64,000 nt of DNA from Podarcis cretensis (Eukaryota), in assembly GCA_951804945.1 (NCBI GenBank), contig OX638151.1, positions 87,358,001 to 87,422,000 of the forward strand. The letters are read 5' to 3'. Below are positions 1-40,526 of the stretch, in pieces. A model generated the notes under the pieces. It ran no database searches and was not told the DNA's origin. It saw only the letters and a list, made by a program, of their open reading frames with translations. The translations under genes and the position numbers were made by a program. Each line of letters begins with the position of its first letter. Within the stretch, counting starts at the first letter, position 1.

Positions 1-1256
1 AAAAATTCCCTGGAGGCCTTTCAGGGAGTGCAGAGGGGCTGCCGTTAGACAGAAAAGATGAAATCCCCACCCCACAGTGCTTTGGATCATAGATGCCAAA
101 ATTTTATATGAAAGCACTGATTTTCAAGTTAAACTTCACTACCATTTTCTTAATGCTTCACTTCAGTAGTGTGAACCCAATTAACTGGAAGAAATTAAAA
201 GGGCATTCTCTAATCATTAAATGGTATTAAAATTAGGCAACATGCAAAAACAATATAATTAAATCACTTTGAAATTATCAAGGTCACATTTAGAAATGAA
301 GGTCAATCATACACACACACACACAAACATAATCATATTGATGATTGCATTAATTTAATTAATGTCATAGTTTGTAACCATTTTTTGACTCTGTGGAGTT
401 GTACGTAAAATGATCACAAAACTGAAAGTAAATGTAATTAAGCAATTTCATAGATACTTATCAGCTACTTTCTACAGAAACTCACCTATGTACTCTATGA
501 AAATACATCTTACTCCGTAATCAAGGTAGTCACAATCGCCTCTGAAATAGTAAATTTTAGTGCGCTTTTTCAGGAGTGTTCATCTTTTAGCAAGAGAAAT
601 CTTTGTTCAGTAGCAGGCCAACTCCTATTCCAAATAGTAAGGAATCAACAGCATCTTAATAATCCAGGATCTTCCTTGCTGTCAATATATAGCGTTTAAT
701 GACTCTAGTCTTTAGGCAGACTCACACTGACTTGTGACAGAGCTAGTTGGAATGCTTCTGCCTTCTCTGTCAAATACAGAATCACATACTAATTCTGAGC
801 CCCTATGGAGTTCTTTACAAGGAGATTGCTCATGAATGCTAATAACTTGAGAGCATGTAGCACTCCTGGACTAAAGGAAAAGATAATCACTTCCCTTTAA
901 TGAGGAACATAATATTTCTAAAAATAAACTACCCACTGTTATTCAAAGTGTGCCACACTGAAGTGCGACCTCAGATCATCTACTGTTGGCCATTCTCTCA
1001 GCAGCACAAAAACTCTGGAGCTAGGACAAATAATCAGCCAGGCAAGGTTGCGGTTCTCTGCAAATATGCTTGCTGATAAGCCCCATTCAAGTCAGCAGAA
1101 GCTATTTCTGAGTAAACATGCATTGTCTTAGAATGTAACTATGATGTAAAACCAAACTGAATGCTTCGGTAGACTAAATGTGATGTGATTCACAAAAGCT
1201 TGCTGTCTGTCGATTCCGACACTTGCCATTGCATTCATGTGTACAACTCTAACGAT

Positions 1257-1327
1257 TCATAGAATCATAGAATCATAGAGTTGGAATAGACCACAAGGGC
1301 CATCGAGTCCAACCCCCTGTCAAGCAG
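1257..1327 (-). mobile_element. CR1-type LINE/SINE 3' tail fragment
   Basis: (TCATAGAA)n on + strand, i.e. the CR1 (TTCTATGA)n tail, followed by GAGTTGGAA...GAGTCCAACCCC. Confidence 0.7.
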
Positions 1328-1587
1328 AATTCAAGTGTTGGGTGTCTAATAATAAAATCTTCTCATTAGTAGGTGCTCAGTCTTGTTGGTCTAGGGACGG
1401 AGGGAGCAACTTGAGATCAGCACCATGGACCAAATACGTACCAAATACGTATGGCATATTCTGAGCTGGTGACCTACATTCACGGTAATGAACATGGCAG
1501 ATGCCAAATGATGATAAGCAACCTGCTGCTCATAAGACAATATGATGATGATGATGAAATTGTTGGCTTCACATGTGGAATCATATA

Positions 1588-1983
1588 CAGTGGTGCCCCG
1601 CAAGACGAATGCCTCGCAAGACGGAAAACCCGCTAGAAGAAAGGGTTTTCCGTTTTGGAGGTGCTTCGCAAAACGAATTTCCTATGGGCTTGCTTCGCAA
1701 GACGAAAATGTCTTGCGAGTTCCTGCAGGGTTTTCCCCCTCCCCCCCTTTTTCTAAGCCGCTAAGCCGCTTATTAGCTGATCTGCAAAGCCACTTATCAG
1801 CTGATCCGCTAAGCCGCTTATCAGCTGATCTGCTAAGCCGCTAAGCCGCTTATCAGCTGATCCGCTAAGCCGCTAATAGTGCTAATCCGCTAAGCCGCTA
1901 ATGGGCTTGCTTCGCAAGACGAAAAAACCGCAAGACGAAGAGACTCGCGGAACGGATTCTTTTCGTCTTGCGAGGCACCACTG
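1588..1983. mobile_element. Tc1/mariner-superfamily (Tigger/pogo-like) MITE with an internal minisatellite
   Basis: 22-bp TIRs CAGTGGTGCC(C/T)CGCAAGACGAA with 1 mismatch. TA target duplications at 1586-87 and 1984-85. Internal CTAAGCCG / CTTATCAGCTGATC repeats at about 1753-1900. Confidence 0.88.
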
Positions 1984-4900
1984 TAATTTGTAGAGTTAAA
2001 AGAGATCCCAAGGGTCATCTGACTAGATGCAATCTCCTGCAATGTATTGTTGACTGATAGTTAATGGTATTGTAAGTGTCTAAGCAGAGGCACTCAACAC
2101 AGACAAGGAGCCCCATGCAAAGTTTGCTGTGGGCAGAACAGTCCTCCATGACCCTGCAAACTACCCACTTCTCAGAACTTATCTTTGGGCAAAAAGATTC
2201 CACTGAGCATATGGATTGATAATATGGACAGGTTAGCTACATACAAAAGAATTGCTTGTCAACGCAAAATAATAATGGATAAATACGAAGAAATTTGGAA
2301 TGAATATCTAAGTGACAAGGAGGATAACAGTGGGAAATAGAGGGGGGAGAGAGTGGTGAGGGGGGAGGAGTAGGCATAGGGATATTACTGTATATAAATT
2401 AGTGTTGCTAATTTGTGTTATTATTGTTATTATGGTTTTTTGTTGTACATATCAACAGGAGTACCAGATTGGCTCCCCTGTTGCCTTTGCACTGTGCCAG
2501 CCTCCTCATCGCCTTGCCTCGCCTCTCTCCATCCCATTAAGCAACAGTGACCCACCTGCTGGAAAGCTAAAATAGTGCCTCCCCTCTCCCCTCCGCAAAC
2601 TGCTTCTGCAATCATCTCTAGATAGTGAGTACTATTTAAACTACACATTGTAGTGCTTTTAGAAACGCACTTTCCACTTTAATTACTAGTGGGGAAAATC
2701 CATTTGTATGAATATGAGGCAAAAGAAAAGTCTGCAATATGGGAAATGTTAACAGTTTCTTGTTAGTAAGAAAGAGTGCATAGTAAAATCCCAATTTATG
2801 CACGTCTCTAATGAGGCAGAATTTGATGATGAGCCATGGAAAAATCTGCAGCCTGCCAGACACATGCTTTGTGATAACCGGAGCTAAGTCATCCTTTTAT
2901 GTCTCAAAAGCAAGCCTGAACATCTAGGCGACAACCACTGCAAATTATCTTGCTGACCTTAAACAGAAGGTGAACCCAAAAGTAAATTACCCTAAGCATT
3001 CCTTTGTTTAGTTTTAGGAGGACAAAACTTGGGCAGCAGCAAAATGCCTGTAGAAGGATGCTGCATTTCTGAGCTGTTTTCATGTCTTCAGTTTCCAAAC
3101 AGGATAAGGAGCACCAAGGAGACAAGTTTCCGAATGAGTTATCCTGCATGTAAATGCACTGGGCATAGAAACGGGGGAAAGGATAACCCAGGACCCCCAA
3201 AGTGTGCAGAAAAATTGTGTTTGGCTTAAAAGGGGTGGGAAGTCACAATGGGTGTACAGGTGAAAGTCCCCAGCTACTGGGGCTGGCAGTTAGGCTGAAA
3301 GAAAGCCAGAGATTTGCTACTAGGGTGGAATCTAGTCACATATCTAAAAAGCTGTGAAAATGCATTTTTAAAAAAATGTTTTGAAAAATATATTGGCTTT
3401 GACATAACTCACCATTGCCATCCAGTGTCGCATTTGTATAATGCACTTATGAAACATTTTATTTGCAGCTCATAGCTGAGTTCTAGGATTCCTCCAGCCT
3501 AGGGCCCAAAGCTACCTCTTTCTAAGAGGGTGATTACCAAATTACATCCCCGCCCTCTCTCTCCTGCAAACTGTGCCAGGGCCTCACAACTCTACACTCA
3601 TAATTTTCTAGTATTTTTTTTTTAATGCAATGGAATTCTAGCATTTTTCCTAGTTACAATCATAGCATCTGATGCTGGTCATTAATCCCAACCAGCCATG
3701 TTGCAAATTATGTGTGTACATGCAAGGAAATAGCCTGGGATCATTCATAAAAGAAATACAAACTTAATTTCTGAACCAGCTCATCTGTATCCTTGCAATA
3801 AGATCTATTCTCTAAAATCAGTCACCTGGTGAAAAGATAAGAGAAGCATCATCTTACAGTGCAGTCCTAAACTTGTCTACTCAGAAGTAAGTTCCACCTA
3901 GTTCAGTAGGTCTTACTCCCAGGAAACTGGGTGCAGGGTTACAGCTTCAAGTACTAAGGCTGCTGCTGCTATGTGCTGACTTTAAAGTAGCCACTTCACC
4001 ACTAAACTGAATGCAAACACTGTCACTGTCCATTAATGCACTGGGTGTTGTTGTTTTTTACAGGCCCTGTTTATATAACAATAAGGAATGGAAAAACCCC
4101 CACCACCATTCTAGGAAAGGGGGGCAGGAGAGAGAACAGGTGAGAGGAAGATTGTACACTAGATGCCAGGAGCATCAGGGCATTGGGCTCACAGAACTTG
4201 CCAAATCAAAAGATGGCAGCTGAATATGTTTTACTTTTAATTTGCCTCATGCAATGAGCTGTCCCTCTTAACCCAAGTGACACCAATACCAGCCTTGCTG
4301 TATCATAGGATTGCAATCTCCACTGTCTGGGGCTTGCTTCACTGGCCTGGAATCAGTTACTTCTGAATTTTTCCGTTATGAGATGGTATTTGAAGGAAAG
4401 AGAATAGACCTTTTCAAAAAATAATAATACAGTTCTGCAGGAATCAATTGCACTATAGCTCCCAAAGGCAAAACATGAGGGGAGCAAAAGGATCATCTGA
4501 ATTCACTCAGTCGGCCACAGGAAGGATAAAGGCAAAATGACTAGCTGCTACTATTTGGGCTCAAGAAAGATGAACATTCATTTCAATTGCTACAAAAGCT
4601 TATGTTAACATAGCTTTACTTTCCAAAGTAGTTCAGATTATACTTTTTATTAAGCAAAAGTGTGGGAATGACACTTCTAAAACAAAAGAGATGGAATAGT
4701 GAAAGGGCAGCTAACCTTTCTGTGTGGATAAGACTTATGTTTTTGTCTCTTATGACCTTGTAGAATTCCCCCCTGAAATTTAGGATACCTAGATGTAATT
4801 GTAACTGAAAGCGACCACTATGAATTCAAAATTGTTGACCAGGAGGAAAACCAGGACACATCACAAAATGAAGATCTCTTCTCCTTCCTCTTATTTGAGA

Positions 4901-5061
4901 TAATAACCAAGCATGTCATAGGCTAGGACATCTAAAGTATTAAATACTCCTAAAGTATTAAATACACCTAGATACCCCTAAAGTATTAAATACTCCTACA
5001 ATTAAAATAGCAGACGAGGATTGAGGGAATAAATATACAAGGGAAGGAAGCTAACTTTTAC

Positions 5062-5205
5062 CTCACATCAGCAACAGTATGCCTTCTCCTTTTCTTTTCT
5101 TCCATATTCATTTTTTTTCCTCTGTGCCCCGTCTCGCCATCTAATTCCCATGATATCCTTCTTTCTTTTTTGCCATCACTTTTGCAGCTCTCTAGGGACT
5201 TTGAC
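5062..5205 (-). CDS. RIMS1: Candidate RIMS1 cassette exon (R-SKSLESCKSDGKKERRISWELDGETGHRGKKMNMEEKKRRRHTVADV), 144 nt, phase 2->2
   Basis: Open frame in the phase required after exon 9554. Purine-rich body, acceptor aaaag|G, donor GAG|gtaaaa, two UGCAUG just upstream. Confidence 0.65.
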
Positions 5206-5535
5206 CTTTTCCATAGTCAAAACATGCAGGCATGCAAAATTAAAATGTAAATAACTCAAAATAAAAATAAGGAACTACAGACACTAGCTCTACATTCACA
5301 CATGATTTTAGAGCACTACAAAGCAAGCAAGAAAAAAGAAACAACCAACTTTGGATTTTAAAAAACAAGCAAACTCAAATTCAACTTAAACAATAACATA
5401 GACCCCAGCTGGCTAATTCTAAGAAGGCAATTATTTTCTGTTTCAGGGTTTCATTCTATGAGAACTGATCTATTATTGCCGTGCAATGTTCTTCACCTTT
5501 AACAATTAACTGAACAAGAACCCCTCAATTAAGCC

Positions 5536-5859
5536 ATGAAGGAGCGTCTCCACCCCCATCGTTCAGCCCAGACACTGAGATCCAGCGCCGAGAGCCTTCT
5601 GGCGGTTCCCTCATTGCGAGAAGTAAGGTTACAGGGAACCAGGCAGTGGGCCTTCTCGGTAGTGGCGCCTGCCCTGTGGAACGCCCTCCCAGCAGATGTC
5701 AAAGCAATAAACAACTATTTTACTTTTAAAAGACAACTGAAGGCAGCCCTCTTTAGGGAAGTTTTTAATGTCTGATGCTGTACTGTTTTTAATATTCAGT
5801 TGGAAGCCGCCCAGAGTGGCTGCGGAAACCCAGCCAGATGGGCAGGGTATAAATAATAA

Positions 5860-5910
<51 letters not shown>
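5536..5910 (+). mobile_element. 5'-truncated L2-clade LINE (ORF2 C-terminus, 3' UTR, (TTA)n tail)
   Basis: ORF 5536..5775 has the L2-type AFSVVAPALWNALP motif. 3' end GGAAGCCGCCCAGAGTGGC...GGGTATAAATAATAAA followed by (TTA)n. Confidence 0.85.
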
Positions 5911-6512
5911 TTTCAGCCTGTCCTGTTGAACAGGGACAATTCAAACACGCTTACATTTCTCAGAAGCAGACCAAGAATCACAAATCTGAAGCTACTGGTT
6001 GCTTTGTATGTGTTTTTCTCTCTTTTTTTAAAGTTAACAGCTCACCATCAACTGTGCTAACTTTGCCATCCTTACAGATATGAACTTTTGAGATTGCAAA
6101 GTTAGGTGAGTCTGCTAAGAATTCATTAACTAAAACCATTTTAAAATTATAACTCAGTAACAATAATGAATGCCTGATCTTTGCAGGACTATTGATTTTC
6201 TGTGAGTCACATATTTATTGAAAAAAATGTAAAAACCTTGAGAAGCAATTAAATATGCAAAATGTTCTATTTTTTTTTTTAAAAAGCAGGGAAAAGTGAA
6301 ATGTCTATTCTGTATTACAACTTTTTTCAAGACTTATTCAACCTCTTTCCTATCCTGAAGAAGAATACTGCAAGTAAACTCTATAACACTTTTATTAGGT
6401 TTCTAAAAAGGAACGAAATATACCCTTTGATCTTATAATCACTTAAGTAGTCCAGGCTATGAATTACACTCCACATTCACATGATTGATGCATACGAAAC
6501 CTTAGTGTGTGA

Positions 6513-6690
6513 GGGAAGGGCCTTAGCTCAATGGCAGAACATCTGCCTGGAATACTGAAGGTTTCAGGTTCAACCCCCTGAAATATTCAGGTTAGGCTGC
6601 TGCCTGAAAACCTGGAGTGATTGTCAATCAGTATACACAATACTGAGGACCACTGGTCTGCTTCCATATAAGGCAGCATCCTATGCTTCT
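6513..6690 (+). mobile_element. tRNA-derived SINE (Squam3-like), decayed
   Basis: A box TAGCTCAATGG, B box GGTTCAACCC, tail TATAAGGCAGCATCCTATG. Confidence 0.7.
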
Positions 6691-7298
6691 GTGCTCTGAA
6701 GTAAGCGAGATGCAGACTTCAGGGAAATAGGCTGCTATCATTTATAAAAATTGATGGGGTGAAACACCTGAGGAACTAGTTTGGCCACATAGCACTACTG
6801 CACTGAACAGGTTTATGGACCATCCTAAATCTACAGGCTGCTGCAACCGAATGGATGGATCACTGCTATAAAGAAGAGACAGGCTGGGAGATGGCTGGCC
6901 TTATCTATCTAGTACCCGCTGAAGTCATATCAGTTACAATATGTACGCTAACGTACTGCTATATAACTCAATGCCATTTTCTCAGCTGTTTGAGCTCTGT
7001 CACCAGGCATGTACATTTTAACAGGAAAATCTAAACTCATGAAAATTCGGCTCAGCTCTACCAAGAGTCTCCCTCCCCAAATTTGAGGCAGAAGGTAGTA
7101 GTGGAAGGAAAATAGTCTCCAGTGGAACACACAAAGACAGGTTACCTATAGCCATTGCCACTTGCTGGAGACCCAAGAGCTCCCTGTACCTTGCAGTTAC
7201 CAAAATTTGCATGTTGCCTCTACCTACTTGCTGAGCTTCTCTAATGCTGCTGAAACCTAGAGGTCATCAGATTTATTTATTTTTTCCATATTTATATA

Positions 7299-7534
7299 AA
7301 GGTAAAGGTAACCCCTGACCATTAGGTCCAGTTGTGACCCACTCTGTTGTTACCTTCCCGCCGGAGCGGTACCTATTTATCTACTTGCACTTTGAGGTGC
7401 TTTCGAACTGCTAGGTTGGCAGGAGCAGGGACCGAGCAACGGGAGCTCACCCCGTAGCGGGGATTTGAACTGCCGACCTTCTGATTGGCAAATCCTAGGC
7501 TCTGTGGTTTAACCCACAGCACCACCCGCGTCCC
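7299..7534 (-). mobile_element. Sauria SINE (lacertid POM type), internally shortened, 11-bp TSD
   Basis: Minus strand starts GGGACGCGGGTGG...GGTTAAACCACAGAGCCTAGG and ends in (ACCTTT)n. TSD ATATTTATATA at 7288-7298 and 7535-7545. Confidence 0.88.
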
Positions 7535-9553
7535 ATATTTATATACCTGCCCTCTAAAATGAGTTTTGGGACAGCTCACGAAGGGGGAAAAAAGATGCAA
7601 GCTTTCAATAAACTGCTATCGCCTCCCATAACTCACTCCATGGCAGTGATACTGCAGGAGATGTTAGCTCAAAGGCATAGGACATCCCTTCCCAACATGG
7701 TACACTCTAGATGTTTTGGACTAAGACTTTAATCAGCCTCAGCCAGCATGGCCAATGGTTAGGGATGATGGGAGTTGTAGTGCCCATCACGCTGAGGTTG
7801 CTTGGTGTTGGACATTATGCTATTAATTAATACTAACTTATAGCTGTGCTATAATGCAGGCTTGGAAATAATGGGCATGTTGGGCATTGAAACCCTAAAT
7901 AAAGAGGAAACTTTGCTACTGGCTTAAATGACAGAGCTCTGTCTTTTAAATGAACTCATGGCAGCTAAAGTGGAAATCATGGCCAGATCATGCTGTAAAT
8001 CTAAAAACTGAGCCAACTGGTCAACTTTTGTCAGAGATGGGATTCCAGCCTATCCCATCAGATTGCTCAAGTTCTCAGGTAACATTCAGTCTCTACTCCC
8101 ACCTGATCCCCCCAAAAAGAAAAACCAAAAACCGTTTTGTCATTAAAAAGAGCCAGAGGGTGGGATTTTTTTGGAATGCTTTCAATATGTTCTGAGATAA
8201 TGATGTGCAATTGCTGCTACCTGGAAAATCTCTGAAAAGCTGGTAAAGCTAGGAGATAGAAGGCCACAATCTTAATTAATGTTGAATAAATGTTGGAGTG
8301 TTGACAATATATTTTGTAATAACAACAAAACATTTAGCTTCATGTTAAAAGCAAAACAAAAATATGTTAACCTGAACTTATGATGCCCCTAAAATGACCA
8401 GAGGAACTAGGCATTAACAAAGCAAAAGGATTTTGACCCTACAATATTTTATTTATTTATTTATTTCATAAAAATTTATATACCACTCGATTGTAGAAAA
8501 AAACACAAAGCAGTGGCAAACATATGGCATGCAAAACAAAATGTATACTTGTTGCAACTATTACTCTACAAATATGACTGTTGCAGGATCCCAGGCAACT
8601 GAATACATTGCTTCTGTTCAATCCAACCTTTTCAATCACTACTATGGGAGAACAAAAAGGAAGACAGCTTAGGACACCTTTAAATGTTACCCTGGTCACA
8701 TAGGACATTCTTTTTTCCATGCCTGGCTCCTGTGCAGATGGGATAATGTTTGAAAGAACCAGCCTCACATAGAGAACTCAAGTGTGCAGTCCCCTGCTGG
8801 GAGGAGGTGAGGAGAAGACCCACCCCACTGACTCTCTGCTAGTGTAGTTGGATCACTACTTCAACCACATGGCAGCCACTCACAGGAAAGTGGGTCCCAT
8901 GCAACCATGGTTAGATTTAAAGGTCTACAAAGACACATCAAGAAAAGGGTACTATCTAAGAAGTTTGTACTGCATGTGCACAAACATTCCATAGGGTTAA
9001 CTGGCTGCAATACAAAAAACAAACAAGCAAACAAAAATCTTGCCTTGTAGGACCATAGGGCCCCATTGATTATGTTTTGAGGAAAGGCTTGAAATGTTAA
9101 TGAAATATATGGAATGCCTTTCAAAGAAAATGTTGATATTTCAAAAGCAATCCTGAAACTTTGATTTCCATATCAGTTCAGAGGTGAAGTCCACTGAATT
9201 CAATGGGGCTTACTCCCCGGTAAAGTGTGTTTTTGGCTTGCAGCCTTGGTTTCTTAAAGCCTTTGAGACTGCAAGCTCCTGTACCCAACAGTATTTAATT
9301 TCCTCTTCATAATAAATGATTGTATGACTATGGCTTTGCAATAAATGATTCTGTTAAAGTTCTGGGTTTCAAGCTGACCCACTATTGATAGCTGCTCAGA
9401 TTTTGTTTTGCTGCTTCAGCAGTCATAATCCAAAGTTTGAGTTTCCTTTTTTCCTCCACCCCCCCCCCCTTGCAATTAGCAATTGCTGTTTGTATATGCG
9501 TGTAAAGAACCGACTATTTGAAATATCTGTATATGTCTACATTGCAAACTCAC

Positions 9554-9720
9554 CTGATTCTGCCCCTCGGGCGCTCTGATTGCTCTGACATAAAGCTTGT
9601 GCTGCTGAGACGTGAGGCACTGCTGGCACGGGAAATGGCTGACACATCACTGACATCACTATCTGATGATTTGGCAGAGACGTTATCACAACTTCTGTAC
9701 TGATCTGCTTGTATGCTATA
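9554..9720 (-). CDS. RIMS1: RIMS1 exon (YSIQADQYRSCDNVSAKSSDSDVSDVSAISRASSASRLSSTSFMSEQSERPRGRI), 167 nt, phase 0->2
   Basis: Acceptor ctctttag|TAT, donor AG|gtgagt. Near-identical to recalled RIMS1. Confidence 0.96.
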
Positions 9721-9914
9721 CTAAAGAGTTAAAAGAGAAAGTGTGAGTTCTCTTGACACAGTGTGAGGGAGGGAAAAGCTTCATGGTGTTACAAATCATT
9801 ATATTGTTGTGACACTGGTAAACTCCAGAAAATTTCTATTATTATTATTATTATTATTGAAAGAAACCCCCAAAAGAACAACAATGTCTTATTTTGCCAG
9901 ACCAGTACAGGGAA

Positions 9915-38458: not shown

Positions 38459-40526
38459 CTTCACAAGATTTGGAAACATGGAAGTGAAAGTTGAACAGAA
38501 TGGACAGAAACAGATAGAAACAGAGAGATGGTCACATGCAGTGAAGATGGAGACATGCATCAAGATATTTCTATGAACCAAGAACATTCCTCTTGTAGTA
38601 CATCCAAGCAACATTTCTGATCTCTCCTTTTCAGTGTTTCAGAAATAGGAGTGTTGTTGTTGTTTTTTAAAAAAATGTGACATTGCAACAATTGTAACAG
38701 AAAACATTAATAAAGGATAAAGACAGAAATAACAAACAATAGTTCATCTGCAGTGAATAAACTAAAGTTTGGCTTTACTATTTTCATTACTCCTGCTGAT
38801 AACACAACCAAATTTGTCCCCTTGAGGTGAATGTTTGCAAGGTTAGTGTTTGGATTTGTAGAAATAAATATTGGTCAAAATTACCTAAGAATGCCATATA
38901 TAGATATTATTGATTATTGTTTTCAGTAACTGCAGTACTTCGAGAGAGAAAGAATTCCAGTTATCTACTGCAGATCCTGTGCTTTTAGCTTAAGAACCAA
39001 TTTATTATACTGGGTATATAGCAAAATTATTCTGATGCCAGCTTTATTAACTATTTCCCTGTCTTTCTTAAAGAAAACAGCCTTAGGCAACTGTAAATCA
39101 GTGGGACACAATTTTAAAAATGTGAATCTCTAGCTTTTGCCTCCATTTTGCCTCCACATACATATTTATCATTTCTTTGATAAAATTATTTCACGTGCAG
39201 TTACCAATACTAATATTTTTTGGATTAAAATGAATGGGAATGCTGTCAAGATATGGCACACAGCATGGAGGAGGTGTGTGTAGAAAACCTAGCTATTTTA
39301 AATTATGGTTCAGTAACTTAATACATGCACATATACAGAGGACCTGTTACAAGCAATGAAAGAGAAAATGCTTATAATCTAAGAACAACATGACACTAAC
39401 ATTCAAACATTCAAATAAGAAAACCATAACAAAAACAACCACCACCACCAAATATATATCACATTTGGCCAATCAGCATATAAAGAGAAATCCACAAGCA
39501 CTGAAATTGTTTGATGATTGCTATCTTGTAGAGAAAGCCTGCCCTTGGGATTTTTAGTTACGAGATGATGAAATACACCAATTGCACCAAGTAAGTTATA
39601 CTGTCGTGAACTGAACCGCCTGTGCCTTTTCAAAAGCTGCCCATAGGCCATAGTTTAACGGGCTGTTAAGCAAGCAGACAAGATCACTGATTTAAATGAG
39701 CCAAAGGTTGCCTAACCGTATTGGATTGTGGCCTTGAGGCACTCTGAACCCCTCTCACTGCCTGCTGAATTCAATACATGGCAGTGCAATCCTGTGGAAG
39801 TTTGCTCAGTTGGCAAGTCCCATTGTTGTTCAGTGGGGCTTACTCACTAGTAAGCTGTGTTAAGGACTGCAGCTCAAGATGATTATAAAGCACCAATTTA
39901 AAATTCAAAATATGGCTGCCCACTTGCTGTTGAGAGATGAGAGACACTGTGTGGAAGGTTCTCTGCTATTGAGACTACCAGGGGCTAAAGAGAAATAAGT
40001 GATGATTTGTTACACAGCATGAAAACCCAAACAACTCATCTCAACTCCAGTATCTACTGGGGTACTGTAAGATTTATTGCTGCTTATTATCACCAGAACA
40101 ATTCTGGTTCCTTCCTTCATATATGTACTTCACCTTCTTGATGGAAACCCTGTATCTGGGATTCCAAAATAGGCTGGCTCGAAACAGAAGGCTTCATGGT
40201 TTTGGATCTCTGTGTCCTGATGACACAGAGGAGGGGCACCTGTATGAATCATGGATATCCTCTTCCAATCCCCGACTCCATAAGCAGCCCACCACACTGG
40301 GCAAGGCTAATTTGTCAACCAGGCAGCACATTTTTCAGCATTTGACTGCAAGGACATCAGAGGTGCTTTGTAATAACGTGAGTAGAATTCAGGTATGAAA
40401 TGCTTTCTAGTGTCCTATCCTAGATTCCTGGAAAATGTAATTTTTTTTAAAAAAAATACATGCCTTTAGAAACTTCTTGGCAAGATTCATCAAGTCACTT
40501 TTCACTTAGGAGGGGCTGGCTAGTAC

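Follow-up and report, generated by a model that had tools for sequence, protein, structure and literature searches.

The DNA analysed here, a window of 64,000 nucleotides from Podarcis cretensis (contig OX638151.1 of assembly GCA_951804945.1, forward-strand positions 87,358,001 to 87,422,000), carries on its minus strand the gene RIMS1, whose product RIM1 organises vesicle priming and calcium-channel tethering at synapses. A 1768-residue Podarcis model of the protein maps exon by exon through the window and the next 30 kb. Within this gene, a sequence-only reading had proposed an additional 144-nt, frame-preserving exon with a particular phase, peptide and donor, and on all these points the borders, the translation and the protein models agree (Table 1). 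The acceptor AG of the cassette is at 5207-5206 on the minus strand, its donor reads GAG followed by GTAAAAGT, and the upstream exon ends at 9554 with ...ATC AG, which gives the cassette its phase of 2/2; the 47 codons from 5204 to 5064 translate to exactly the peptide first stated. The exon is 74% purine and has the canonical AG and GT borders, as well as the frame-preserving length, of a coding cassette exon. The next downstream RIMS1 exon lies outside the window, 10,206 nt further on (L002:4855). The cassette is inside the alternatively spliced block that runs in RIM1 and RIM2 from the proline-rich region to C2B; this block is missing in its entirety from two lizard models, and we take it to be the one named splice site C.

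Table 1. Features of the RIMS1 cassette exon and its surroundings (positions in the window).
Feature	Position	Strand	Remarks
RIMS1 cassette exon	5062..5205	minus	144 nt, phase 2/2; 47 full codons plus split junction codons
Upstream RIMS1 exon	9554..9722	minus	ends in phase 2; 4348-nt intron to cassette
5' splice site GTAAAAGT	5054..5061	minus	fish counterpart is CAG/GTAAAG
UGCAUG site 1, predicted RBFOX site	5231..5236	minus	31 nt before exon
UGCAUG site 2, predicted RBFOX site	5223..5228	minus	23 nt before exon
Putative branch point yUnAy	5239..5243	minus	A at 5240 (-35); directly 5' of UGCAUG pair
Weak purine-rich 3' splice site ending AAG	5206..5225	minus	judged by pyrimidine count
RRIS codons, basophilic R-R-x-S	5151..5162	minus	W at +1; RRISW in 38 of 39 distinct versions (partly circular)
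RRHT codons, basophilic R-R-x-T	5076..5087	minus	V at +1; RRH[TS]V in 38 of 39 distinct versions (partly circular)
UAG cluster (Musashi-type triplets)	4923..5053	minus	seven UAG; weak lead

The comparison of the exon peptide with proteins yielded 263 matches from 275 candidates, and the best 120 of the 263, all of them squamate, were listed. Among these best 120 were 44 lacertid RIMS1 models (Podarcis, Zootoca) that are 100% identical in the exon and 76 other squamate proteins at 79-87% identity in the exon, from the genera Anolis, Hemicordylus, Phrynosoma, Elgaria, Sceloporus, Salvator, Eublepharis and Pogona. The same 120 best matches had the upstream junction in 119 cases and the join to the next exon in 117. 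The exon is also left out of some models: it is included in 45 of the 62 squamate cluster members, 15 go without it and 2 without the entire block around it, although the clusters were picked via exon-bearing proteins and counts of models are not inclusion levels. The sequence-only reading had held the exon to be new, and by its own criterion this was mistaken, as RefSeq models already contain it. The RefSeq-predicted RIMS1 isoforms XP_053237153.1 (Podarcis raffonei X5) and XP_054854064.1 (Eublepharis X2) have the same exon with the same junctions, and so do the RefSeq-type teleost models XP_042282915.1 (Thunnus maccoyii) and stickleback rims1b. The exon is thus already known from automated gene catalogues, and these squamate and teleost models, being automated, carry no function, regulation or tissue. 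No paper on the exon was found in the literature searched, with the subscription papers that define the RIM splice sites lying mostly outside its scope, and the accessible portion of PMC7917623 is silent on it. Some lacertid models (P0002, P0003 and P0004) terminate shortly after the cassette, one of them with a short terminal tail and the other two by skipping the next exon and reading the following one out of frame, with the removal of C2B. The possibility that the start of the exon is a conserved alternative start was rejected, as an in-frame ATG just upstream in some relatives is out of frame here.

A counterpart in fish came from a metagenome scan, in which one locus, L013, among 364 pattern matches carried the same exon upstream at 79% DNA identity, followed by an intron of 306 nt and an exon of 153 nt in phase 2/2. 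The peptide of the L013 exon has matches at 80-98% among teleost models of RIMS1 and rims1b (best 120 of 598 matches), and of 23 fish cluster members 13 include the exon, 6 go directly to the following exon and 4 have other sequence, so that inclusion and skipping are both present among the models of squamates and of fish. Based on the occurrence of the exon in both squamates and teleosts, with included and skipped models, the exon and its optional use would be at least as old as the ancestor that ray-finned fish share with tetrapods. The reading of the lizard stretch as a cassette exon in this frame is backed by squamate and teleost protein models, together with one RNA-like contig.

That contig came from one of four sequencing runs (X1, X9, X20 and X22) mapped over positions 1-9300 of the window, a span without either flanking exon. 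In run X9, which was taken as RNA by an automated guess, a 202-nt contig at a depth of 4.1 covers 5062-5207 with 28 unmatched letters on each side, and depth in the exon bin is zero for X1, X20 and X22, so that the exon was seen in one run of the four. With k = 31, a value taken from the index description, a bubble between inclusion and skipping predicts lengths of 28, 28 and 202, as observed. Were the upstream donor unspliced, the length expected on the 5' side would be 26; the 3' side has no discriminating power. We infer that the flanking exons are at the ends of the X9 contig. In addition, record P0126 is spliced, with the upstream exon joined to the cassette, but has a frameshift in the A-run of the cassette. 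High-copy repeats in both flanking introns (1241-2170, 5271-5890 and 7131-8060) take nearly all of the mapped reads, and the small read shares of X1 and X9 stem mostly from them; short tandem copies are present in the repeat at about 1760-1920.

The exon with its flanks has a single match in the genome, and a recent transposon origin was rejected on that ground. Protein searches of the genome found no paralogous exon, their only other match being stop-ridden (E 9.9). At the RIMS2 locus (G000:C7:71560001-71650000; L021-L029), the equivalent flanking exons are about 12.9 kb apart, and an HMM of the 39 distinct exon versions found no counterpart in the 90 kb searched (best E 1.4). For mammals there is one weak datum: in the accessible part of PMC4991804, the mouse retina table (file 3) has no 144-nt cassette among the 9 Rims1 rows listed.

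The 39 versions exclude the frameshifted P0126 and also P0193, which was dropped as an exon homologue after it proved to be a spurious immunoglobulin-repeat match. Across them the conserved islands are S[KR]SL, RRISW and RRH[TS]V, separated by a variable spacer, and the gecko has S for T in the second motif (RRHS). The RRIS and RRHT motifs that had been reported in the exon are indeed there, each kept in 38 of the 39 versions, a conservation that is partly circular since shared 5-mers served as seeds in two of the searches. An unseeded search brought up P0190, a tetrapod-type record (66%) that has lost both RRxS/T motifs while keeping the frame and the intron element, and that may mark a lineage in which the exon decays. 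The separate basic patch, KKRRR, that had also been proposed dissolved on comparison, as it is only the basic half of the second motif (ELKRRRH in fish), and the region is one R shorter in two records. The exon encodes 14 basic and 9 acidic residues among 47 and has no Pfam match. It is downstream of the C2A Pfam match at residues 758-867 and, based on the layout of the model and on established RIM anatomy, it lies before C2B. The pattern looks like a linear-motif module in a flexible linker. The consensus for PKA is R-R-x-S/T followed by a hydrophobic residue, and both motifs conform to it, including the hydrophobic residue at +1. RRx[ST] occurs five times in all in the 1768-residue model, two of them inside the cassette. 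Conservation of the two motifs supports the idea that they are phosphosites, and they are likely phosphorylated by PKA-type kinases. The fish exon (L013:1186-1338) has a third motif, KRRFS, in the spacer, which 25 of the 39 versions share but no tetrapod-type version has. Inclusion also forms an R-x-R-x-x-S over the 9554/5205 junction (RIRSKS in the lizard, RLRSKS in fish); since the skipped form in the lizard already has an R-x-R-x-x-T (RGRIST), the gain of a junction motif is clear only in fish.

Between gecko and Podarcis the cassette is identical at 38 of 48 residues, compared with 47 of 48 and 78 of 79 for its neighbours. This lower conservation would fit a low-level or decaying splice product without function, its apparent use inflated by automated isoform modelling, and the weak acceptor, the sighting of the exon in one run of four, and the two records with eroded motifs and with a frameshift, respectively, point the same way. 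Neutral sequence, however, would not persist with its frame, phase and both motifs kept from lizard to teleost, and it is because of this conservation that the decay explanation is largely refuted and, to our minds, highly improbable. That the cassette is a real, ancient and optional RIMS1 exon, already present in databases, is next to certain.

What might control its use is suggested by the acceptor. Only 8 of 18 positions before the exon are pyrimidines, compared with 15 and 13 of 18 for the two exons upstream, and the putative branch point is one of four candidates found by a motif scan of 60 nt. The tandem UGCAUG described before the acceptor was found at 5236-5231 and 5228-5223. The minus strand of the window has 40 TGCATG, with three pairs within 25 nt, and at least two copies within 50 nt upstream are found at 6 of 4248 AG dinucleotides. 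Two TGCATG in the upstream 200 nt arose in 16 of 5000 dinucleotide shuffles, a descriptive figure, as the region was chosen afterwards. There is no UGCAUG within 300 nt downstream of the lizard exon. In L013, the 306-nt intron has TGCATG at -171, -124 and -106 (22 of 5000 shuffles reach three), and the rest of the locus (2.5 kb) has one. In four other tetrapod-type records the translated intron gives FNFACLHV at positions corresponding to the lizard pair, and five fish records read CMH[AE] at about -33; both are protein-level matches only, compatible with the hexamers and with a conserved hexamer, respectively. A conserved (U)GCAUG in the proximal upstream intron, as expected of RBFOX-repressed exons, is accordingly found at two sites in the lizard and three in the fish locus, and this conservation supports the RBFOX idea.

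As far as the available parts of PMC10987577 and PMC11874969 go, RBFOX binding upstream of an exon generally represses its inclusion, and PMC11874969 adds there that not every GCAUG is bound and that repressed exons follow the rule imperfectly. The RBFOX-repressed cassettes in those parts of the two papers likewise have upstream UGCAUG and a weak acceptor, and here the 300 nt downstream are free of the hexamer; the differences are that RBFOX control of the present cassette is a prediction and that the distance from sites to AG differs between the lizard and the fish locus. With its UGCAUG more than 100 nt from the AG, L013 does not have its acceptor covered as in the lizard. The lizard sites sit where the factors for the branch point and the pyrimidine tract must bind, so blocking would be the likeliest mechanism: bound to the UGCAUG pair, which sits between the branch-point candidate at -35 and the pyrimidine-poor AG, RBFOX would keep the 3' splice site from being recognised. 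Repression of the exon by RBFOX at its weak acceptor thus appears likely from the sequence, and the exon would be left out in cells rich in RBFOX and used in cells with little of it. RBFOX is expressed by most neurons, and RIMS1 is a neuronal gene, so that under repression the exon should be included in cells poor in RBFOX. Another RIMS1 exon (TTALESCIPK...; about 38458-38380, minus strand), present in the lacertid models mapped, has a UGCAUG pair at 38559 and 38540, about 102 and 83 nt upstream, and may be co-regulated with the cassette. The third close TGCATG pair of the window (57848 and 57829, minus strand) adjoins no exon of the three models mapped.

The same element could instead be read by another factor, SRRM3/4 on the UGC near the weak 3' splice site or MBNL on the UGCC between the two sites, in a cassette just as real that neurons would include generally. 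A UGC does stand 23 and 31 nt before a weak acceptor, RIMS1 is neuronal, and 45 of the 62 squamate models include the exon, a count from a biased sample. The motif of MBNL is given as YGCY in the accessible part of PMC4991804. Yet it is the full hexamer that is repeated, not just UGC, and it occurs also in fish, more than 100 nt from the AG; in addition, SRRM targets are mostly microexons in the portions of the literature available. We regard control by SRRM3/4 or MBNL as unlikely, and RBFOX as the reader of the pair is retained below.

A second alternative keeps RBFOX as repressor in central neurons and makes the cassette an isoform of photoreceptors or other sensory cells, activated by Musashi via the UAG cluster downstream. 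According to the part of PMC4991804 at hand, photoreceptors have no RBFOX, and their exons show an enrichment of UAG clusters on the downstream side; RBFOX motifs are enriched upstream of retina microexons in the source material available. Seven UAG fall in the first 140-150 nt or so downstream of the lizard exon, a number reached by 2 of 426 tiles of the window. It is reached also, however, by 1348 of 3000 dinucleotide shuffles and is thus not significant, while a local repeat accounts for three of the UAG, and 150 nt of the fish locus contain one. Moreover, 'rims1' has no match in the retina-enriched exon table of PMC9303857 (chicken and zebrafish sheets), with 12 of 18 supplements searched. 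Given a cluster that is not significant and is lacking in fish, and the absence of rims1 from the retina tables searched, a photoreceptor isoform is a minor rival, and quite an unlikely one.

For RBFOX repression, then, the proposed consequence concerns the protein. Inclusion would lengthen the linker ahead of C2B by 48 charged residues that contain two R-R-x-S/T motifs and would act as a linear-motif module and not a folded domain. The number of RRxS/T would rise from three to five, and the included isoform would gain a further cAMP/kinase input close to C2B. The mechanism as a whole, RBFOX repression together with the added kinase sites, we consider on balance probable from what the sequence suggests. 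In the lizard model, RRHSDV at residue 368 is presumably the counterpart of Ser413 of RIM1alpha. The cassette motifs share the R-R-x-S/T type of Ser413, and RRHSDV resembles the RRHTV of the cassette. Ser413 is in the accessible parts of PMC3797957 and PMC10171863 a PKA substrate site whose phosphorylation is dispensable for presynaptic LTP in vivo. It differs from the cassette sites in lying in the N-terminal half and in having been tested, whereas the cassette sites, ahead of C2B, are predicted ones and come with an optional exon.

The cassette is one of many optional RIMS1 exons and was already catalogued; what the present analysis adds is the conservation of its kinase motifs and of the UGCAUG sites upstream. 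Which PKA targets serve presynaptic plasticity is still an open question, because S413 is dispensable in mice, and the cassette is a concrete candidate for a PKA-target module, with two of the five RRxS/T of the protein, kept from fish to lizards together with a conserved splicing element. If mammals lack the cassette, it would be no explanation for the mouse results. A broader proposal, which we hold to be doubtful, is that a RIMS1-specific exon of bony-vertebrate age, which mammals may have lost, ties a switch in splicing to one in signalling. Cells poor in RBFOX, such as photoreceptors or sensory cells of other kinds, or neurons that are still immature, would then produce RIM1 with two additional PKA sites beside C2B. 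If that were true, cAMP would act on the release machinery of fish and reptile synapses through an input that mouse RIM1 is without.
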